Shown here in pieces: positions 3,575-31,433 of a stretch of 32,000 nt of DNA. Both the position numbers and the translations under genes were made by a program. Position 1 is the stretch's first letter, and each line of letters starts with the position of its first letter. Source of the stretch: Cylindrospermopsis raciborskii Cr2010 (GTDB taxonomy: Bacteria; Cyanobacteriota; Cyanobacteriia; Cyanobacteriales; Nostocaceae); assembly GCF_003367075.2 (NCBI RefSeq), contig NZ_CP065936.1:660001-692000 (forward strand), read 5' to 3'. A model generated the notes under the pieces. That model had not been told where the DNA came from, did not search any database, and saw only the letters and a list, made by a program, of their open reading frames with translations.

Positions 3575-4384
3575 GTGAAACAATTCATTCAAATTGGTGA
3601 CTATGAGGCCGCCTATATTGTTCAGGGAAAAGGTGAACCATTAGTTTTATTACATGGTTTTTTCGGTAATGGGTCAACCCTAAATTGTCTGGTAGAGCAA
3701 TTACAATCTCAATTTCAATGTTTCAGCTTAGAGCTATTAGGATTTGGTGACTCTTCCAAACCCAAAATTAATTATTTAATTCAGGATCAAGTTGCCTTTC
3801 TCAAGCAATTTGTAGATAATCTCCAACTGCAAAAGTTTTATTTAGCTGGTTATTCCTACGGTGCATGGGTCGCTTCAGCCTATGCTATTCATTACCCATT
3901 TAATTTACATGGTTTAGGTTTAATTGCGCCCGCAGGTATTCGTGATGATAGTTTTGTTGGACGTTATGACCACCTTAAACCACTACTTTGGCAGACAAAA
4001 CTTGTGGATTTGGCGATCGCCCTATATAAGCCTTTTGCCTACTTTAGCGGAAACAGGGATGGTTACCAAAAAATTGCCCAAGCACGTCATGCGCTGGTGA
4101 CTCAACCTGCTGCTGCTGCTATGTTAAAGAGCAGATTAAAACCAACGGATGCTGTGGATACGGTGGAAAAACATATCCATCAAATTTCGACACCAACAAT
4201 AGTTATTGCTGCGGAAAATGATACTACTATTCCCCAATGGCACAGTGAAACCTATGCGAAAACCATTCCCCAAACCGCTTTTTATGTTATCCCAGATGCT
4301 GAACATGACTTTGTTAATACTCATGCTCCGGATATTTGCCGCTTAGTTTATTCTTTTTTTACATCGGTAGCAATAGATGTCTGA
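3575..4384 (+). CDS. Alpha/beta-fold hydrolase
   Basis: GTG start. It has the HG oxyanion motif (VLLHGFFGNG), the nucleophile elbow GYSYGAW, and a C-terminal DAEHDF (catalytic His region). Confidence 0.85.
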   Translation: MKQFIQIGDYEAAYIVQGKGEPLVLLHGFFGNGSTLNCLVEQLQSQFQCFSLELLGFGDSSKPKINYLIQDQVAFLKQFVDNLQLQKFYLAGYSYGAWVASAYAIHYPFNLHGLGLIAPAGIRDDSFVGRYDHLKPLLWQTKLVDLAIALYKPFAYFSGNRDGYQKIAQARHALVTQPAAAAMLKSRLKPTDAVDTVEKHIHQISTPTIVIAAENDTTIPQWHSETYAKTIPQTAFYVIPDAEHDFVNTHAPDICRLVYSFFTSVAIDV

Positions 4385-4421
4385 AGATCTACATTATACG
4401 GTTTTCAGGTATCCCATTTTT

Positions 4422-5165
4422 CTAATGATATTGAGTTAAATCATTTTGAAAAAATAACTCCATGCGATCGCCCCGGAATCGAGTTACCCCATATTCAATT
4501 ACATTACCACTTTGATCCACATTCACAGACTCAGCCAACAGAATAGGTTGATTATCGGAGAGTTGCAACAAAATGGCATCTTGCGGTTGCACTAACCGAG
4601 CAGAAACAGCTGTACTGCGTCGAATATGGTCACATCCATACACCTGATACAAAAACCTTGATATGGATTTCTCTGTCTCTAAAATCTGAAGATGGCTGGG
4701 TTCAAAAAAGTCTGGGAACCTTTTTAATGGAAAATATCCACTACATACACTAATGGGTTGGTCATTAGCAAAACCTAAACGTTCAACGAGGGCTACTCTC
4801 TCCCCAAAACCAATTTCTAACCCTTTGGATATTGCTATATCTGCTGATATCTCTAAAATACGTAATAACTCAAACTGAGCTTGCCAACCCTGGGCTTTAA
4901 GAGTTTGAGTGTAACGCACTCTCTTACCAATAGGATAACGAATTGTCCTAGCAGCTACAAAGGTTCCTCTCCCCCTCTCTACTCTTATCCATCCTTCATT
5001 TTTTAATAAACCAATGGCTTGTCTAATAGTATGCCGATTTACTCTAAACTGTTGTGCTAAGTTTGTTTCGGTAGGTAGTTGTTCCCCTGCACTAAAAACC
5101 CCTTGTAAAATCTTTTCCCGCAGTTGATGGGCAATCTGATTGTAAATGGGAATAATTTCTCTCAT
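4422..5165 (-). CDS. phnF: GntR/HutC-family transcriptional regulator PhnF (phosphonate metabolism)
   Basis: N-terminal wHTH LAQQFRVNRHTIRQAIGLLKNEGWIRVERGRGTFV aligns by eye with E. coli PhnF FEVNRHTLRRAIDQLVEKGWVQRRQGVGVLV. It has a C-terminal UTRA-like domain and is divergent from phnH. Confidence 0.85.
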   Translation of the reverse strand: MREIIPIYNQIAHQLREKILQGVFSAGEQLPTETNLAQQFRVNRHTIRQAIGLLKNEGWIRVERGRGTFVAARTIRYPIGKRVRYTQTLKAQGWQAQFELLRILEISADIAISKGLEIGFGERVALVERLGFANDQPISVCSGYFPLKRFPDFFEPSHLQILETEKSISRFLYQVYGCDHIRRSTAVSARLVQPQDAILLQLSDNQPILLAESVNVDQSGNVIEYGVTRFRGDRMELFFQNDLTQYH

Positions 5166-5270: not shown

Positions 5271-5858
5271 ATGTCAAACATACTTACTCAAATACCGGGG
5301 TTTTCTGATCCTGTCCATGATGCCCAGCAAACATTTCGCGCTTTGCTATGTGCTGATGCACAACCAGGAAAACCTGAAAAAATCCATGTCCAGATTAAAG
5401 TCCCTCAGGGGTTAACGCCAGCTTGCGGTGCAGCTTGTCTGACTCTGTTGGATTTAGATGTCAAACTGTGGATACAACCCACATTCTCTTCCTCAGTGAG
5501 AAATTGGTTGTTGTTTCACACTGGGTGTCAACTAACACCAGACCCACAGCAAGCGGACTTTGCCTTAATTCAAGACTTGGCATCTATGGCGGAATTATCT
5601 GTTTTTAACCCAGGAACAGCGGAAAAACCGGAAGATTCCACAACCTTGCTGATACAGATAGCAAGTTTTAATGGCGGAAAATCTATCACCTTAACAGGTC
5701 CAGGAAATTTATCACCTAAAACCATAGCACCTAGCATTACTAGCACTTTTTGGGAATTCTGGGAACAGAATTATCCGCTTTATCCTCTGGGAATAGATGT
5801 TTTTCTATTTACAGAAGATTCCGTAATGGGACTACCCAGAACTGCAAAACACTCATGA
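5271..5858 (+). CDS. phnH: Carbon-phosphorus lyase complex subunit PhnH
   Basis: VHDAQQTFRALL, LLFHTGCQLTPDPQQADFAL, TTLLIQIASFNGGKSITLTGPG and YPLGIDVFLF...GLPRTA align block for block with E. coli PhnH ([64 protein letters not shown]...AIPRTT). Confidence 0.9.
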   Translation: MSNILTQIPGFSDPVHDAQQTFRALLCADAQPGKPEKIHVQIKVPQGLTPACGAACLTLLDLDVKLWIQPTFSSSVRNWLLFHTGCQLTPDPQQADFALIQDLASMAELSVFNPGTAEKPEDSTTLLIQIASFNGGKSITLTGPGNLSPKTIAPSITSTFWEFWEQNYPLYPLGIDVFLFTEDSVMGLPRTAKHS

Positions 5859-6331
5859 AACTGAAAATTCGCCTAACTGATTCTCAGGATTGGTCAATAT
5901 TAAATCAGTTATATGCTGATATGGATCAAAAAGCTCCCCTAGCTGACCATCGAGTGCAAGAGATTTTCACAGAAATTAGTCAGATTCCCAATTACCATAT
6001 CTACCTTGCGGAATTAGACTATGAACCAGTGGGGACATTTAGTCTTCTGTATGTACCGACAATGATGCATCCTGGTTATCATAGATTTGCCATATTGGAT
6101 GCAGTCACAGTTATCTCCTCTCTTAGAGGTCAGGGGATTGGCACAGAAATGGTTAGATTTGCCCTGGAGCAGAGTGTAGCAGCAGGTTGTTATAAGGTTA
6201 CTTTATCTTCCAACTTAAAGCGTGATAATGCTCATAGGTTTTATCAGTCATTAGGATTTGAACAACATGGTTGGAGCTTTAACTGTGTAGTTCAACCAGA
6301 TATTAAACAGGATGGGTTAGCAGTAGGGTAA
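5855..6331 (+). CDS. GNAT-family N-acetyltransferase (possibly PhnO-like)
   Basis: The ATG at 5855 overlaps the phnH stop (ATGA). The acetyl-CoA binding motif RGQGIGTEMVRFALE and the C-terminal AHRFYQSLGF are present. The upstream part of track ORF 5750..6331 overlaps phnH and is not coding. Confidence 0.75.
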   Translation: MKLKIRLTDSQDWSILNQLYADMDQKAPLADHRVQEIFTEISQIPNYHIYLAELDYEPVGTFSLLYVPTMMHPGYHRFAILDAVTVISSLRGQGIGTEMVRFALEQSVAAGCYKVTLSSNLKRDNAHRFYQSLGFEQHGWSFNCVVQPDIKQDGLAVG

Positions 6332-22080: not shown

Positions 22081-22182
22081 TTATAGATATTGAAACACAA
22101 GGCGATCGCATTCTGGAACCACTACACTGCCAACTACTGTGGTGTCATTAACATTGCCGATAAAATTCCTAGTCTGTGCCAT
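22081..22182 (-). CDS. Small ORF (33 aa), copy 1: MAQTRNFIGNVNDTTVVGSVVVPECDRLVFQYL
   Basis: It is below the track length cutoff. AGAGG lies 11 nt upstream of the ATG. The first 27 codons are duplicated at 25307..25387, with 4 synonymous and 2 non-synonymous codon differences. Confidence 0.4.
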   Translation of the reverse strand: MAQTRNFIGNVNDTTVVGSVVVPECDRLVFQYL

Positions 22183-22343
22183 AATTTGATTACCTCTAAA
22201 AGGGGTGTAAGGTGATCCGGATTTCTTGGAGGAAAGCCTCGATCACCTTACCTTTAAGTATAAAACTACTTGAATAAATATGCAATAGGTTTATTGAAAA
22301 AAATTAATAAAATTTGTAAATCTTTTAGACTTGTCAAGCATAA
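22102..22343. repeat. 242-bp direct repeat, copy 1 (left boundary of the accessory cassette)
   Basis: It aligns with 25307..25549 with 16 differences (15 substitutions and 1 indel, by manual alignment). It starts exactly at a HIP1 site. Confidence 0.9.
22207..22251 (-). promoter_or_regulatory. Conserved leader hairpin upstream of small ORF copy 1
   Basis: GTAAGGTGATC...GATCACCTTAC forms an 11-bp perfect stem with a 23-nt loop that can itself pair further. The stem is identical in the second copy at 25412..25456, and the loop differs at one base. On the minus strand it lies between a TTGACA hexamer and the small-ORF SD/ATG. Confidence 0.45.
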
Positions 22344-22513: not shown

Positions 22514-24082
22514 ATGAAAGAGTTCAACACAGTCGGCATTTGTCAGATAGAAAAGCACTACATGTGCGATGTGACAGCAAAATTCAATAGATGTAGTCAA
22601 CTGATAGAAAGTGGCAAATATTTTGCCATCAATTTCCCCCGCCAACATGGGAAGACCACCATGCAGAATCTGCTGGCAAAAAGCTTTGAGAAGGTGGAAA
22701 CATATCTGGTAATCAGCACCAGTTTCGAGGGGATTGGCGACCTACCATTTGAAAGTGAGAAAAATCTGGCGGGCATGATACCTGTGGTTTTTGCCAAAGG
22801 ATTGTTCTTCAACCACCCGGAACTAGCGGACTGGCTTGAAGGTGAAGCCAGGAAAATAGAAAACTTCCAACAACTTTCAAGATTTATCAGCGATTGGGTT
22901 AGTAAGTCTGGGCTAAAAATTGTTTTGCTGCTGGACGAAATTGACAAAGCCAGCAACAACCAGGTGTTCATCAATTTCTTGTCCTTGTTACGGGACAAAT
23001 ACCTAGCAGCAGCACAAGGTCGAGATGCCACCTTTCATTCCGTAGTACTGATTGGTATCCATGATGTGAAGACCTTGAAGTTAAAGCTTACCACGGGTGA
23101 GGAGCGCAAGCTGAACAGTCCTTGGAACATTGCTGTAGACTTGGATATCGAATTCACCTTCACCCAGCAGGAAATTGAACCCATGCTCGTGGAATATGCC
23201 CGTGAGCATATACTCACCATAGACTCTCATTTATTGGCTCAGCTTCTGTTTTACTATACCAATGGTAATCCTTTCCTTATTAGCAAGATGTGCCAGGTCA
23301 TTGATGAAGTTTATATGCGTGAAAATAAGCGACCTTGGGCATCTGAGGACATCGACGCAGCCTACACATACCTAGTGGATGGAGCTTATACCACGACCCA
23401 CTTTGATGATATTGACAAAAACCTGGAAAACAACGAAGATCTTTTCCACCTGGTCAAAGATATTGTGATCAATGGTATGGCATTGAAGTTCAATGTCAGC
23501 AATCCAGTTATTGCCAAGGGCAAAGTCTATGGAATACTAAGGGGAAACGAGCAGGGTCTCTGCGATATCAGCAATAAAATCTATGAATACCGAATTCTTG
23601 ACTACCTACTTTCTAAGCAGGAAACTGACCATGGCCTCCTTGACCGATACCGAGACAGCGGATTCATATCTGGTGGAAGACTCAATATTGAGCTAATCTT
23701 GGAGAGATTCCAGTGGTTCATGCAGGAGCATCATTCATCTAAAGACAACGATTTTCTGGAGTCCAACGGGCGTATGTTGCTCATGTCTTTCTTTCGCCCG
23801 ATCATCAATGGTAAGGGATACCTATTTAAGGAGAATGTGACTGCGGAAGACCGTAGGATGGATTTGGTGGTTACCTACAACAACCAGCGTTATGTGATCG
23901 AACTGAAAATCTGGTACGGTGAAAAGCGGCTCCAGGATGGACTTGATCAGCTTTGTAGCTACCTAGATTCGTACAGGTTGAACGAGGGACATATAATTGT
24001 ATTCAATTTTAATAAAAACAAGGCCTACGATACACGGAAAATTGTTCACCGTGGCAAACGTCTTACTGCTGTCTTCGTCTAG
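22514..24082 (+). CDS. P-loop ATPase with a C-terminal PD-(D/E)XK-like module (divergent paralog of 8299..9846)
   Basis: 522 aa. The N-terminus MKEFNTVGICQIEKHYM parallels MPKHFNTAGPCQSDIHYM. Walker A is FPRQHGKTTM and Walker B is IVLLLDEIDKA. The C-terminus has RRMDLVVTYNNQRYVIELKIWYGEK. I saw no HIP1 site inside the gene. Confidence 0.6.
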   Translation: MKEFNTVGICQIEKHYMCDVTAKFNRCSQLIESGKYFAINFPRQHGKTTMQNLLAKSFEKVETYLVISTSFEGIGDLPFESEKNLAGMIPVVFAKGLFFNHPELADWLEGEARKIENFQQLSRFISDWVSKSGLKIVLLLDEIDKASNNQVFINFLSLLRDKYLAAAQGRDATFHSVVLIGIHDVKTLKLKLTTGEERKLNSPWNIAVDLDIEFTFTQQEIEPMLVEYAREHILTIDSHLLAQLLFYYTNGNPFLISKMCQVIDEVYMRENKRPWASEDIDAAYTYLVDGAYTTTHFDDIDKNLENNEDLFHLVKDIVINGMALKFNVSNPVIAKGKVYGILRGNEQGLCDISNKIYEYRILDYLLSKQETDHGLLDRYRDSGFISGGRLNIELILERFQWFMQEHHSSKDNDFLESNGRMLLMSFFRPIINGKGYLFKENVTAEDRRMDLVVTYNNQRYVIELKIWYGEKRLQDGLDQLCSYLDSYRLNEGHIIVFNFNKNKAYDTRKIVHRGKRLTAVFV

Positions 24083-24112
24083 CCAACTGTTGATGCGATC
24101 GCCCAGTGTAAT

Positions 24113-24595
24113 CTACCGTCGGTAAAGTAGATGGTCTGGATCTAGCCACACAATGTAAAAGATTTCTTCAATAAAGAAGCCGTGCACCCTGCCATGTTCA
24201 TTGGAACAAATAGAAAATTGATAAGGTGTATCCACTATCTGTTCTTCTCCAGGGATACCAAAGCCCGATTCAGTTGTATCCTCCCAAGTAATTGGATGGC
24301 AGCGTAACGCTTTACTACGGTTGCTGATAAGTTCCTGAGCCGTCCAACTAGAAATATCTCTAAGTCTTTCAAGAAGACCAAGCAAGTAATCGGAGTTCCT
24401 ACCCACAACTGAAAAATCCCTGTGGTCACTCTGAAAGTACTTGTATGAGAAGCTTATTCCTTTTGACCAATTCTCTGTGACAGTGGGCTTTATTTTAGAA
24501 GGAGACTGATTTTGAAGTTCAGTCTTCTTAATCTTATTCTTCTTCGGCACGTACTTTGTAATACTCCCTGATAGATTCCTTGGTAATAATTTCAT
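24113..24595 (-). CDS. Uncharacterised protein overlapping the 3' end of the Panacea antitoxin gene; candidate toxin (PanT-like, possibly RelE/HigB-like fold)
   Basis: The ORF is open from 24640. Possible starts are ATG 24640, 24607 or 24595, or GTG 24550 (17-nt overlap with the panA-like gene). It has a Lys-rich N-terminus. The C-terminus LLERLRDISSWTAQELISNRSKALRCHPI...YQFSICSNEHGRVHGFFIEEIFYIVWLDPDHLLY resembles the HigB pattern (...ELNRQIYKLHPLKGDREGYWSITVRANWRITFQFINGDAYILNYEDYH) by eye only. Confidence 0.45.
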   Translation of the reverse strand: MKLLPRNLSGSITKYVPKKNKIKKTELQNQSPSKIKPTVTENWSKGISFSYKYFQSDHRDFSVVGRNSDYLLGLLERLRDISSWTAQELISNRSKALRCHPITWEDTTESGFGIPGEEQIVDTPYQFSICSNEHGRVHGFFIEEIFYIVWLDPDHLLYRR

Positions 24596-24992
24596 TACAG
24601 GGAGCATCCATAGGTAGGGAACCCCTTGCTCTTGCTTCAATCCAAGGGGTTTCTTGGTGGGTCATGCGTTCTAATTCGTAAGCATCGCACTGGAAGTACA
24701 CTTCCACAACCTCATCCAAAAAACTTCTGATATTTTCAGGCAAGTTAGGCTCCTCTACTTCTTGTTGGATGGGACGCCATCCAAAACCCTTATATTGCTG
24801 ATACAGCACAGGAATGACCGGCCCATGAACCCAGGCCTCAAATTCTTCTTCAAACAGAGCAGTATCGTAGAGCGCTAAATGCCAGGCCTGAGCATAGTAA
24901 ACCAGCTTTTGTAATTTGAGGTTGCTAATATATGAACCAGTTTCGTTTGCCAGGTGAATGAAATAACGTGCTACATCAAAACTAGTAAGCAT
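24534..24992 (-). CDS. Panacea-domain (DUF4065, SocA/GepA-like) protein; putative type II antitoxin PanA
   Basis: FDVARYFIHLANETGSYISNLKLQKLVYYAQAWHLALYDTALFEEEFEAWVHGPVIPVLYQQYKGFG matches the DUF4065 consensus (..ITNLKLQKLLYYAQGW.L...G.PLF.E.IEAW.HGPV.P.VY..YK.YG). A strong SD (AAGGGGGA) precedes the ATG. Confidence 0.85.
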   Translation of the reverse strand: MLTSFDVARYFIHLANETGSYISNLKLQKLVYYAQAWHLALYDTALFEEEFEAWVHGPVIPVLYQQYKGFGWRPIQQEVEEPNLPENIRSFLDEVVEVYFQCDAYELERMTHQETPWIEARARGSLPMDAPCNEIITKESIREYYKVRAEEE

Positions 24993-25051
24993 GTTTTTCC
25001 CCCTTTAAACCAGGACAAGAACCAAGAATTCCCCACACTTAACATAGGGTA

Positions 25052-25080
25052 ATCATAACAATAGGTGCATCAAAAGTCAA
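25052..25080 (-). promoter_or_regulatory. Candidate sigma70-type promoter of the panA-like/toxin operon
   Basis: The minus strand reads TTGACT tttgatgcacctattgt TATGAT (17-nt spacer). The -10 element is about 60 nt upstream of the ATG at 24992. Confidence 0.55.
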
Positions 25081-25145
25081 GTTAAATTTAGAATTGCTGA
25101 CGATCACCACTTTTTGTTTTTGTCGATAGCTTCTGCAGTGTACAC

Positions 25146-25286
25146 ATAGGTGTTATCTTTTGGTTAATTCCCAACAAGAGGCATCTCTAACGCTTATTTT
25201 AGCATACCAGTCAGCTACTTTTGTATTGGGGTGTCTCACCTTAAAAAGTAGTATTGGTAACGCTTTGGCTATTTCCGGAGATGTCT
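25146..25286 (-). mobile_element. Solo 141-bp terminal fragment (IRL end) of the IS5-superfamily element found intact at 30293..31433
   Basis: Its reverse complement matches 30293..30433 with 3 mismatches. It begins with the terminal AGACATCTCCGGAAA. Homology stops abruptly at 25146, and no transposase or second end is present. Confidence 0.9.
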
Positions 25287-25387
25287 AATCGCTTTAATGG
25301 TTCCCTGCGATCGCATTCTGGAACTACCACGATGCCAACTACAGTAGTGTCATTAACATTGCCAGTAAAATTCCTAGTCTGTGCCAT
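25241..25387 (-). pseudogene. Small ORF copy 2, fused to IS-derived sequence: MAQTRNFTGNVNDTTVVGIVVVPECDRREPLKR-LDISGNSQSVTNTTF
   Basis: The start and SD are the same as in copy 1. From 25286 downward the reading frame runs into the IS end, which supplies the last 13-15 codons and the stop. Confidence 0.5.
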
Positions 25388-25549
25388 AATTTGATTACCT
25401 CTAAAAGGGGTGTAAGGTGATCCGGATTTCTTGGAGGAAGGCCTCGATCACCTTACCTTTAAATATAAAACTACTTGACTAAATATGCAAGAAGTTTATT
25501 GAAAATAAATTAATAAAGCTTGTAAATCTTTTAGACTTGTCAAGCATAA
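25307..25549. repeat. 243-bp direct repeat, copy 2 (right boundary of the accessory cassette)
   Basis: See 22102..22343. It also starts at a HIP1 site, and the same hairpin lies at 25412..25456. Confidence 0.9.
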
Positions 25550-25670: not shown

Positions 25671-26585
25671 CTATTTCCCAACAGGTCTAATGTAAACTTC
25701 CACAACTCTTGCATCAATATTTTCACTAGGATCAGAATTAATCACGTTTTGTCTTTTCACTTCCCAGCCAATTCTCTCTACTGATCCCTGCAATTCTCCC
25801 TCAAGAGAACTACTAGATATTTTCACCTGCTGCTGAGGAAGGATTTTACTAATGTCACTCTGGTAGACTTCCGCTACTGCGTACATCTGACTAGTTTCGC
25901 CAATTTCTACTATCCCCTCATTCCCCACTAGCTCTCCAGCGCGGGTATGGATCTCAAATACTACTCCCTTTTGAGGAGATTTAATATAGGCTTGATCCAA
26001 ATTGACCTTTGCTTGCTGTGCTGCTGCTTTGGCACGATTTAGTTCCGCCCTCGCTGCTGCTATATCTATAGGACGTACTTCCGCAATTTTATTCAAAATA
26101 GCTTTGGCTGAGATAATTTGCTCCCCACCTGTAGAACGGATTCGATTTAGAGCAGTTTTTGCCTCTTCAATTTGCTTTCTGCTAGTATTATCTATTGCTT
26201 CTGCTTCTTCGTATGCTGCTTGTAATCGAGGTTTGTTGTCTAAAATTGCTATTATTTGTCCAACCTTTACCATATCTCCCTCTTTTACCAACAGTCTCTC
26301 AACCCTACTTCCCTGAGTTAAGGTGGATGCAGAAAGTTTAATCACTTTTCCTCTCGGTTCAAGTCTTCCTAAAGCAGTGACAGTATGAATTGGTGGTATG
26401 GTACTTTCACTCGTTGGTGTTTGATTAGCTTTAGAATGTTGGGTTAGCAAAATCTTGTACAGCTGCAACCCACCAACTCCCATAATTATGGCAGTTCCTA
26501 GGATAACTAATGATCTTAGCACTTGTGGATTTGGCTTAGACTCTAGATCACCTACCATAGCTTTTACCTCGAATTTACTTGCCAC
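25671..26585 (-). CDS. DevB-family (HlyD-type) ABC exporter membrane fusion protein, probably 3'-truncated and orphaned
   Basis: VTALGRLEPRGKVIKLSAS...RVERLLVKEGDMVKVGQIIAILDN is the DevB N-terminal signature. The ORF ends ...DARVVEVYIRPVGK, shortly after the conserved ARVVEV block. No devC or devA follows. The track ORF has a GTG start, and ATG codon 10 is an alternative. Confidence 0.7.
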   Translation of the reverse strand: MASKFEVKAMVGDLESKPNPQVLRSLVILGTAIIMGVGGLQLYKILLTQHSKANQTPTSESTIPPIHTVTALGRLEPRGKVIKLSASTLTQGSRVERLLVKEGDMVKVGQIIAILDNKPRLQAAYEEAEAIDNTSRKQIEEAKTALNRIRSTGGEQIISAKAILNKIAEVRPIDIAAARAELNRAKAAAQQAKVNLDQAYIKSPQKGVVFEIHTRAGELVGNEGIVEIGETSQMYAVAEVYQSDISKILPQQQVKISSSSLEGELQGSVERIGWEVKRQNVINSDPSENIDARVVEVYIRPVGK

Positions 26586-29297: not shown

Positions 29298-29561
29298 AGA
29301 ATTGTGATCGGGGTTAGGTAGTAAATGTACCCTTCCTCAACCTGACCTAGGACGAATCAGTTGGGTAAAATTAGTCGGCTCTTGCGTAGATTTTATGGAT
29401 AGAAAGTAAATTAACAGAAATTAATAGTTGACAATTTTTAGAATCGAGGGCTGAAATACAATAGACACAAAAGTTTACAGATTTTTATGTATGTCTAAAT
29501 ACCGGAAGTGATATAATTATATAATTAGAGATGTACAAATCAAGAATTGACGGAGGTAGTT

Positions 29562-30292
29562 ATGAAATTTCCTATAGAGCAAATCCTCAATCTACCAGAA
29601 ATGAAAATATTAGATTGCCAAGAAATAGAAGGCGCAGGAATAATCATTACAATTGAGAAAGCAGTCAACCACTGTACCTGCCCTAATTGTGGACATATTA
29701 CCCATAGTATACACCAAAACCACTGGCGAATGATACATGATTTACCGTGGAGTGAAAAGCCAGTGTTTTTAAAAATAAATCGTCGTCAATTTAAGTGTCA
29801 TAAGTGTAAAAAAGTGTTTAGTGAAAAACTAGACTTTGTGGACAAAAGTAAAGGATATACAAAAAGATTAGCTACTAACATAGTGGAACAAGTATTGAAT
29901 AGTAACATTTATAGTGTCGCCAAAAGAAACGACCTCAGTGATGAAGAAGTAGAATCAATCTTAAAAAGGCAAGTAGCACAAATACAGAAGATAAATTTAA
30001 GAGGAGTGAAAAGGTTAGGGATAGATGAAATAGCCTTGGTCAAAGGACAAGGAAACTATTTAGCAGTATTGGTAGATTTAGATACTCGAAAACCTATCGA
30101 AATAGTGAAAACAAGAAGGATAGAAGATATACGTGAAGTCCTTACAGGGTGGGGATTAGAGGCACTGGAGCAAATACAAGAAGTGAGTATTGATATGTGG
30201 TCTCCTTACAAAAGTTTGGTAGAAGAATTAATGCCCAATGCTAATATAACAGCAGATAGATTTCATGTAATGAAACAGGTAAATGATGAATT
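29562..30292 (+). pseudogene. ISL3-family transposase, N-terminal part (interrupted)
   Basis: It has the zinc-finger-like CPNCGH...CHKC and HTH region typical of ISL3 transposases. GGAGG precedes the ATG at 29562. The frame is broken after ...FHVMKQVNDEL by the nested IS. Confidence 0.85.
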
Positions 30293-31433
30293 AGACATCT
30301 CCGGAAATAGCCAAAGCGTTACCAATACTACTTTTTAAGGTGAGACACCCCAATACAAAAGTAGCTAGCTGGTATGTTAAAATAAGCGTTAGAGATGCCT
30401 CTTGTTGGGAATTAACCAAAAGATAACACCTATCTGAGATAATTTATTTTTAGCCAAGTCCAAATCTTGATAACTAAAATAAGTAGGTTCCCATTCGGAA
30501 ACGAACAAGTCCACAAATAGTCATGATTACCTGTTCATACTTACTTGAATTTAATCGAAATCTTTCTTGTGCCACTCTGAATATTTTCACTACACGAATT
30601 AAATGTTCAACAAAAATTCGTTCGGAAGCTAACTCTTTATTTTTTTCTTTTTGTTCAGACGTTAATTCTTGGTTTTTAGGTTTTTTTGTCGGAGTTTTCA
30701 TTAACTCCTCTCCTTGATAAGCTTTATCACCACTAAATTTTTGTTTTTTATCAAATATATTTCTGGTTTCACGGAATAAATTTACATCACTTTTTGGACC
30801 AGGTTTACCCGCTACTACATCAACAATATCTTTACCATTTGGTAAAACGATTAGTTGACTTTTTCTAGTATGACAGGCTTTTTTACCTGAATAATATTTT
30901 TTTTGTTCTTGGTACTCTCCAGGTCTGTCTATAGGCTGTTCATAGCTATCCACTATTAACTCAAATTCTGTTAATATTTCTTTAACGACTTCGTAATCAC
31001 TGGAGTTTTTTTTTACCTGTTCTAGCAAACTTGGTGGCAATAATTCTCCTATTATTGGCAACCAATAGTTAAAGATATCATTTGCAGTTGTTTCACTTAC
31101 TCCAAATTGAATACCTAGTAGCTGAAATGTTGTTAACTGCCGTAAATATGTTAATGTTAAGATTATTTGCTCCGACGGTGATAATTTGGGTTTGCGCCCT
31201 CCACCGCCTTGAATAATTCGGGTTTTTTTTGATTCAACCAATTGTTGTTTCTGATGATGCAGTTTTATGGCTTTTTCCAAAAGTTGCTGTAACTGCTCAT
31301 ACTTCAGACCCAATAAACGGTGTGATTCGTGAGGATTATTCTGGATATATTCAGATATGTTGCTCATAATAAGTTGCCAAAAATACCATTTCATATTATT
31401 TTATCACACTTTGATTCTTTTTCGGAGATGTCT
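30293..31433 (-). mobile_element. 1141-bp IS5-superfamily (DDE_Tnp_4/Harbinger-like) insertion sequence nested in the ISL3 transposase gene
   Basis: The terminal IRs are AGACATCTCCGGAAA and AGACATCTCCGAAAA. ATT flanks both ends (30290..30292 and 31434..31436). Removing the IS plus one ATT restores an uninterrupted 406-codon ISL3 transposase ORF (...VNDELDNMRKTEKK...). Confidence 0.9.
30474..31394 (-). CDS. IS5-superfamily DDE transposase (HTH_Tnp_4 plus DDE_Tnp_4-like)
   Basis: It has an N-terminal HTH region (LTYLRQLTTFQLLGIQFGVSETTANDIF), DDE-region blocks LIVDSYEQPIDRP, GKPGPKSDVNLF and SGDKAYQG, and a C-terminal ERIFVEHLIRVVKIFR. The start may be ATG 31367 (MSNISEY...). Confidence 0.85.
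   Translation of the reverse strand: MKWYFWQLIMSNISEYIQNNPHESHRLLGLKYEQLQQLLEKAIKLHHQKQQLVESKKTRIIQGGGGRKPKLSPSEQIILTLTYLRQLTTFQLLGIQFGVSETTANDIFNYWLPIIGELLPPSLLEQVKKNSSDYEVVKEILTEFELIVDSYEQPIDRPGEYQEQKKYYSGKKACHTRKSQLIVLPNGKDIVDVVAGKPGPKSDVNLFRETRNIFDKKQKFSGDKAYQGEELMKTPTKKPKNQELTSEQKEKNKELASERIFVEHLIRVVKIFRVAQERFRLNSSKYEQVIMTICGLVRFRMGTYLF

Follow-up and report, generated by a model that had tools for sequence, protein, structure and literature searches.

A Panacea toxin-antitoxin pair of Cylindrospermopsis raciborskii and phage-borne copies of its antitoxin gene with broken toxins

Introduction

A 32,000-nucleotide (nt) stretch of Cylindrospermopsis raciborskii Cr2010 (contig NZ_CP065936.1, positions 660,001 to 692,000; here called the window, to which all coordinates refer unless another sequence is named) contains two overlapping minus-strand genes, panA and panT, that together raise two questions: do they form a toxin-antitoxin (TA) module, and what would such a module do for its host? 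An earlier note on this DNA had read the first gene as a Panacea-domain antitoxin and the second as a toxin candidate, possibly making up a new pair. Our answer is that panA-panT is very likely a real chromosomal TA module of Cylindrospermopsis (Raphidiopsis) raciborskii, that it belongs to a class of Panacea pairs (PanAT) that has already been catalogued, and that a phage infecting this strain and relatives of that phage carry an intact panA together with a broken panT, a pattern that may reflect counter-defence.

Organization of the panA and panT genes

The first gene, panA (24534..24992, minus strand, with its ATG at 24992), codes for a 152-amino-acid (aa) stand-alone Panacea/DUF4065 antitoxin, and an exact-sequence look-up shows that the product is WP_115539005.1. 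Residues 27-117 match Pfam PF13274 (SocA_Panacea) with E=2.2e-22 and 80.5 bits, far over the gathering cut-off of 25.7, and the DUF4065 assignment of the earlier note is therefore secure; PHROGs family phrog_1281 is matched as well (E=8e-50), and there is no additional N-terminal domain. The only sigma-70-like promoter site found by consensus scan within 23900..25400 is at 25080..25052 on the minus strand, and consists of TTGACT and TATGAT separated by a 17-nt spacer, with a TG ahead of the -10 element. It agrees with the consensus at 10 of 12 positions, much as the note had claimed in describing a near-consensus operon promoter. A Shine-Dalgarno-like sequence, AAAGGGGGA (24998..25006, minus strand), can be read 5 nt 5′ of the panA ATG.

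The limits of the second gene are less obvious, since its reading frame is open from 24640 to 24113 (minus strand) and offers several starts. However, the 540 homologues found in databases have lengths of 140-146 aa and begin with M/V-P/S-K-K at the equivalent of a GTG codon at 24550, and we therefore assign panT to 24113..24550 (minus strand) with a 145-aa product, which by exact look-up is the same as EFA69827.1 (CRC_01631 of C. raciborskii CS-505). Two longer starts, TTG at 24640 and ATG at 24595 (the latter giving 160 aa and adopted by some gene calls), were rejected because the homologues begin at the GTG equivalent, with no conservation of the extension upstream of it. With the GTG start, the 3′ end of panA and the start of panT overlap by 17 nt (24534..24550, read from the sequence), which suggests translational coupling. 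The note had given an overlap of 17 to 107 nt depending on the start; the open reading frames (ORFs) do overlap at these sites and the 17-nt value holds, but the homologues give no support to the 24595 start. The Lys-rich N-terminal tail that it had pointed out in the downstream protein is real, in that MPKKNKIKKTE is kept in homologues and is predicted to be disordered.

Conservation of the pair across cyanobacteria

In three PanT homologues viewed in their contigs, a Panacea gene lies directly 5′ of the toxin gene with an overlap of 17-20 nt, and the neighbourhoods are otherwise unrelated. When one genome of each GTDB species was scanned, 318 genomes proved to encode the PanT family, and the best 80, which are from different species, are all cyanobacterial. 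Two of these 80 loci are cut by a contig end, leaving 78 testable, and in 77 of them a PanA homologue (56-70% identical) stops no more than ~60 nt from the start of the toxin gene, in most cases with an overlap, whereas the wider surroundings vary between genomes. The pairing is far above chance, and the antitoxin-first overlapping bicistron that had been proposed for the window is thus a general feature of these loci. The sole testable locus without an upstream PanA is in a metagenome-assembled genome of Nostoc sp. P9121 (L086, 3169..3438), where the toxin gene is 5′-truncated to 89 aa and has an R121T change; decay of this kind is expected once the antitoxin has been lost.

The pair is not new, contrary to what had been suggested. 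Kurata et al. (2022, PNAS, PMC8832971) predicted 1,268 PanAT pairs, and a row of their Dataset S1 lists, for GCF_003367075.1 (Cylindrospermopsis_raciborskii_Cr2010), PanA WP_115539005.1 with PanT WP_006277255.1 in cluster T1, with order A|T, a gap of -17 and the entry 'notest'. Host species, PanA accession, gene order and gap all agree with the pair in the window. Other rows of the dataset give T1 pairs for Nostoc sphaeroides, Nostoc carneum and filamentous cyanobacterium CCP2, and we see homologous panAT loci in the genomes of all three. T1 is the first-numbered PanT cluster and is described from many phyla. Independently of the listing, a T1 toxin from Salmonella phage Emek (orf161, paired in JQ806763 with orf149, the two overlapping by 62 nt) aligns over 130 columns with a profile of 123 PanT sequences (hhalign probability 97.3%, E=1.8e-11). 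On these two grounds the window pair is a member of cluster T1. The SocAB system of Caulobacter crescentus (a type VI TA) has the SocA/Panacea domain in common with PanA, but its SocB toxin is unrelated to PanT and was placed in cluster T10 (PMC8832971). The match of PanA to the NCBIfam SocA_antitoxin model (residues 7-89, E=2.6e-21) scores 76 bits against an equivalog cut-off of 190.

Phage-borne copies of panA

A tblastn search of GenBank phages with PanT had a single phage match, Cylindrospermopsis raciborskii virus CrV-01T, limited to residues 1-55. In the nucleotide alignment, a 751-bp segment of the window (24357..25107, minus strand) that includes the promoter, all of panA and 55 panT codons is 99.2% identical to the phage genome (MH636380.1). 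The phage gene, gp097, is panA, and its product is identical to the window protein at 151 of 152 residues. CrV-01T infects strain Cr2010 (PMC12481020), and the PanA accession listed for Cr2010 is that of the window protein. The homology ends exactly at a repeat of the phage's own CRISPR array. A second copy is in Cr-LKS4 (OQ625504.1), a relative of CrV-01T from Israel that infects strain KLL07; its panA product has 94% aa identity, occupies the same array position directly after a repeat, and is followed by only ~19 toxin codons. In both arrays the panA segment takes the place of a spacer (851 nt in CrV-01T, 5344-6194; 675 nt in Cr-LKS4, 3970-4644), and the spacer that follows is identical in the two phages. 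The phage array may be a landing pad or an expression site for anti-defence cargo. We note that the CRISPR repeat does not occur in the window (allowing up to 3 mismatches), in any other locus retrieved here or in IMG/VR, and that the phage spacers have no match in the window.

Two further copies are in CrV-like metagenomic contigs of IMG/VR, UViG_3300007177_002921 (L092) and UViG_3300016484_001415 (L093), which have ~76% nucleotide identity over 83% of a 5-kb locus. Both carry the promoter and a panA with 99% aa identity, at a different site from that in the two isolates: the gene is in a ~790-bp insertion (L092 1294-2085) between a homologue of gp033 and an HNH gene, and here ~17 toxin codons are joined to a short 3′ remnant. 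All four phage copies thus have an intact 152-aa panA and a broken panT, they occupy two insertion sites, and three of them (CrV-01T, L092 and L093) keep the native promoter. In Cr-LKS4, 9 synonymous and 9 non-synonymous changes separate panA from the host gene, which gives a ratio of non-synonymous to synonymous polymorphism (pN/pS) of 0.26, whereas the toxin remnant is destroyed. Some amino acid changes recur among the phage copies, at codons 4, 36 and 53 (24981-24983, 24885-24887 and 24834-24836): S4C is in three copies, codon 36 has A36S or A36V, and codon 53 has A53D or A53S. These could be adaptive or could represent host allele diversity.

In every copy, at two sites, panA is intact and panT destroyed, and three of the four keep the promoter. 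This pattern is most simply read as the result of selection for an antitoxin that acts against the host PanT. That reading would also mean that these phages are targets of the host module. There are precedents for orphan antitoxins of phages directed against TA defence, including counter-defence against DarTG1 in T4-like phages (PMC11825919), the ICP1 antitoxin mimic that acts against DarTG of Vibrio cholerae (PMC11481870) and the mimicry of ToxI by phage phiTE (PMC3594212). As in those cases, the phage is lytic and, of a TA encoded by its host, has only the antitoxin; the CrV-type copies differ from the DarTG and ToxIN cases in that the antitoxin is a Panacea protein 94-99% identical to that of the host and the decaying toxin remnant is still visible, and those of CrV-01T and Cr-LKS4 also in being within the phage's own CRISPR array. 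We tentatively propose, while regarding the case as falling a little short of evenly balanced, that CrV-type phages have repeatedly captured the host panA and its promoter as counter-defence against an abortive-infection PanAT, discarding the toxin. The accessible literature on these phages, which does not extend to the CrV-01T genome paper (Martin et al. 2019), contains no mention of such a capture.

The alternative that survives best is that the TA is genuine but serves only for addiction, stabilising a repeat-bounded islet that consists of panAT and a neighbouring ATPase/nuclease gene, without taking part in phage defence; the copies in phages would then be functionless passengers acquired by imprecise excision in a temperate past. 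Several observations are in keeping with this. Direct repeats of ~245 nt (22102..22343 and 25307..25549, both plus strand; repeat families D1/D2), 91-94% identical to each other, bound a cassette of panAT and the ATPase gene, and the cassette lies among insertion sequence (IS) fragments. Moreover, the gene order is the same in every C. raciborskii strain examined (a devBCA-like ATP-binding cassette (ABC) exporter, a 48-aa ORF, panA, panT and the ATPase gene in the opposite orientation), so that the locus is a fixed islet in C. raciborskii and not a freshly mobile cassette. The view of the earlier note that the operon is mobile TA or defence cargo is accordingly right about the bounding repeats but sits poorly with this synteny. 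CrV-01T itself descends from a temperate ancestor (PMC12481020), and three IMG/VR viral contigs (L094, L098 and L099, the first with an identifier that suggests a prophage in an isolate genome) hold complete, more distant panAT pairs. However, the phage panA genes are at two loci, which points to repeated acquisition or to a relocation; and a neutral passenger would not be expected to lose the toxin alone each time, as all four copies have, or to show the low pN/pS of Cr-LKS4 and the retained promoter of the other three. We consider a purely stabilising islet unlikely.

The PanT family and its predicted fold

If the phages do carry panA for protection against PanT, the nature of the toxin becomes the next question. 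The note had placed the protein in no family it recognised, and we agree: neither the window protein nor any of 34 homologues has a Pfam match at E≤10, and Pfam, PADLOC and PHROGs searches give no informative family, the sole match being to phrog_8366, a family of unknown function. The family is nonetheless a large one, with 1085 cluster representatives at E≤1e-3 in an exhaustive HMMER search. PanT appears to be a distant relative of the NCBIfam MAG6450 family (NF046006) that scores under the curated cut-off, with the window protein reaching 25.9 bits (cut-off 40; E=1.1e-5) through its C-terminal 24 residues only. The model is also matched weakly by 122 of 123 PanT relatives, with a best E of 1.3e-9, through a C-terminal motif, GRVHGF...WLDP.H.LY. 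MAG6450 of Mycoplasma agalactiae thus shares this motif with PanT, in an alignment limited to the last ~25 residues. Its neighbour MAG6440 is annotated as 'putative prophage protein ps3', which we take to be an old name for DUF4065 proteins.

An alignment of 123 diverse PanT sequences (34-62% identical to the window protein, and numbered here on its full length) shows G120, R121, W135, D137 and H140 to be invariant, and R83, H85 and Q111 to be conserved in at least 90%. PanT also has a conserved 'GIKPT' motif. An AlphaFold2 model of residues 18-145 built on this alignment has a predicted local distance difference test score (pLDDT) of 94 and a predicted template-modelling score (pTM) of 0.85, and consists of a strand, two helices and four strands (beta-alpha-alpha-beta-beta-beta-beta). 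It supersedes a model from a shallow alignment, which had a pLDDT of 78 and weaker Foldseek matches. Toxins of the RelE/ParE superfamily make up 37 of the 45 top PDB matches found with Foldseek, HigB, YoeB, YafQ and RelE take the leading ranks, and the top match is HigB of Proteus vulgaris, with a probability of up to 0.90 and TM scores of 0.52-0.59. A Foldseek search of the viral structures in BFVD gave nothing meaningful.

The best structural match, HigB (plasmid Rts1 of P. vulgaris; PF05015; PDB 4MCT, 4PX8 and 4W4G), has the same order of elements as the PanT model, namely a helix, an L-H-P-L/I motif, three beta strands and a C-terminal Asp/His/Tyr group. A profile-to-profile alignment made with hhalign is co-linear over 70 columns, although weak (E=0.028, probability ~2%). 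In it, PanT LERLRDIS corresponds to INDRLQAID of HigB, LRCHPI to YKLHPL (placing H85 on H54), and GRVHGFFI..FYIVWL to WRITFQFI..AYILNY (placing R121 on R73), while WLDPDHLLY of PanT falls opposite the HigB C-terminus EDYH, with D137, H140 and Y143 aligned to it or abutting it. His54 of HigB is the proposed general base, Arg73 touches the scissile phosphate, and Asp90, Tyr91 and His92 are essential (PMC5027501). From conservation and this alignment, the codons of the putative catalytic residues span 24122..24298 (minus strand): those of H85 (24296-24298; at least 90% conserved), the invariant R121 (24188-24190), D137 (24140-24142) and H140 (24131-24133), and the conserved Y143 (24122-24124).

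The two proteins also differ. There is no significant sequence similarity between them (none by Pfam), and PanT has an N-terminus ~50 residues longer and an insertion of ~17 residues between strands 2 and 3. The partner of PanT is a Panacea protein encoded upstream of it, whereas that of HigB is HigA, a helix-turn-helix antitoxin, and in higBA the toxin gene comes first. The suggestion in the earlier note of a HigB/RelE resemblance in the C-terminal half is supported by the fold match and by the co-linearity of the conserved residues, including its 'L..HPL' and terminal His/Tyr elements, despite weak statistics; it does not extend to membership of PF05015. On balance, we think it likely that PanT has an RNase fold and activity.

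Several results weigh against this assignment, and against the toxin role itself. No Foldseek match is better than E=1e-3 (the best is 0.067), the hhalign comparison with HigB is as weak as described above, and the Pfam models for RelE, ParE and HigB toxins (PF05015, PF05016, PF15738 and similar) do not match PanT at E≤10. The PanT profile also found no RelE-type chain among PDB chain sequences; the matches that sequence searches of PDB chains did return (glia maturation factor, an ionotropic glutamate receptor (iGluR) and BACE1, with E of 0.03-1) we regard as chance. The T1 members that have been expressed in Escherichia coli behave inconsistently, in that the Clostridium cadaveris member is toxic but its own PanA failed to neutralise it, and the other two of the three tested, from E. 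coli MOD1 and Salmonella phage Emek, are non-toxic (PMC8832971). These data, together with the view of the NetFlax authors that Panacea is mainly a sensor domain (PMC10440598) and the lack of a curated toxin model that matches PanT, could be accommodated if PanT does not arrest growth and the pair has some other function, for example with Panacea as the 'sensor' and PanT as its non-toxic effector or regulator. We note though that the non-toxic Emek protein (L117 3153-3638) lacks equivalents of the invariant R121 and H140, which may be a reason for its non-toxicity, whereas the cyanobacterial subfamily keeps both of these as well as the conserved Lys-rich tail. The RelE/HigB-like fold with its retained His/Arg/Asp/His set, the degraded toxin gene at the only locus without PanA (L086), and the four phage copies that retain panA but never an intact panT all argue for a toxin, and make a harmless PanT quite improbable. 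Still less probable is a PanT with a RelE/ParE fold acting as a ParE-like gyrase poison or on another non-ribosomal target: ParE2 and Pseudomonas aeruginosa ParE are among the Foldseek matches and fold cannot separate RelE from ParE activities, but these matches (E ~4-5) are far below those to HigB, YoeB and YafQ (E 0.07-1), the invariant His/Arg/His residues fit the RNase branch, and the tested T1 members are labelled 'mRNase' in SI Table S1 of PMC8832971.

A proposed mechanism

The interpretation that we favor, and regard as probable, is that the locus is a type II PanAT whose toxin, a HigB-like ribosome-dependent mRNase, is neutralised by the direct binding of PanA, and that it probably functions in abortive-infection defence. 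The single sigma-70-type promoter would transcribe panA and a translationally coupled panT. PanT would consist of the disordered Lys-rich tail and a HigB/RelE-type core, with His85, Arg121, Asp137, His140 and Tyr143 at the positions of His54, Arg73 and Asp90-Tyr91-His92 of HigB, and is predicted to cut mRNA in the ribosomal A site in a ribosome-dependent manner, halting translation. Direct binding by PanA would hold the toxin in check, as stand-alone Panacea proteins do by direct neutralisation in other systems (PMC10440598). Infection could then block the resupply of PanA, or trigger PanA in some other way, freeing PanT and aborting the infection, and infecting phages would counter this by expressing a captured, near-identical panA from which panT has been lost. 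For this last part, defence by the host and counter-defence by the phage, the arguments on the two sides appear to us close to balanced.

Genomic surroundings

Within the repeat-bounded cassette, the gene convergent with panT (22514..24082, plus strand) codes for an AAA-ATPase-like protein of 522 aa that has a PD-(D/E)XK nuclease domain at its C-terminus, and the two stop codons are 30 nt apart. Its N-terminal part matches Pfam AAA_35 (AAA_35/AAA-ATPase_like; E=2e-8), and there are weak matches to PDDEXK_9 and PDDEXK_3 and to the PADLOC candidate-defence models PDC-S54 and PDC-M29B. The gene is next to panAT in every C. raciborskii strain examined, whereas in other genera it is not, and it may be a second defence gene of the islet. 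Each of the ~245-nt repeats that flank the cassette holds the start of a small ORF (MAQTRNF.GNVNDTTVVG...), and the repeat arrangement seems, as judged by gene spacing only, to be kept in other C. raciborskii strains.

Upstream of panA there is also a 47-nt element, TAGACATCTCCGGAAATAGCCAAAGCGTTACCAATACTACTTTTTA (25242..25288, minus strand), with an identical copy at 30291..30337 (plus strand). The second copy is the 3′ end of a truncated ORF for an ISL3-type transposase (29547..30338), which is beside an oppositely oriented DDE transposase gene (30474..31394), and the panA insertion of phage contig L092 has the same 47 nt (L092 1300-1346) as its exact left end. The element may be a mobile-element terminus involved in movement of the cassette. 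Other strains carry the ABC ATPase of the devBCA-like exporter immediately upstream of the 48-aa ORF; in its place the window has an HlyD/membrane-fusion-like ORF (25671..26585, minus strand), and there may have been a rearrangement beside the right-hand repeat. A search of the whole window with Rfam found no RNA family.

Significance

The panA-panT pair itself adds little, as one of 1,268 predicted pairs and an already-listed member of T1, and it is the phage-borne antitoxin with its broken toxin that is new. For T1, a cluster with no Pfam model and a mixed record of toxicity, the structural model and the conserved His/Arg/Asp/His set provide a concrete hypothesis that is open to mutation, that of a HigB-like ribosome-dependent RNase. 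CrV-01T and Cr2010 are both in culture, and represent a natural phage-host pair in which the role of PanAT could be tested directly, in a species that forms harmful blooms and for which phage control is under discussion. If the counter-defence reading is true, these phages would provide the first natural evidence of a Panacea TA system defending against phage, and an example of the hijack of a cyanobacterial antitoxin seen near its source, with 99.2% nucleotide identity between the phage and its laboratory host strain.

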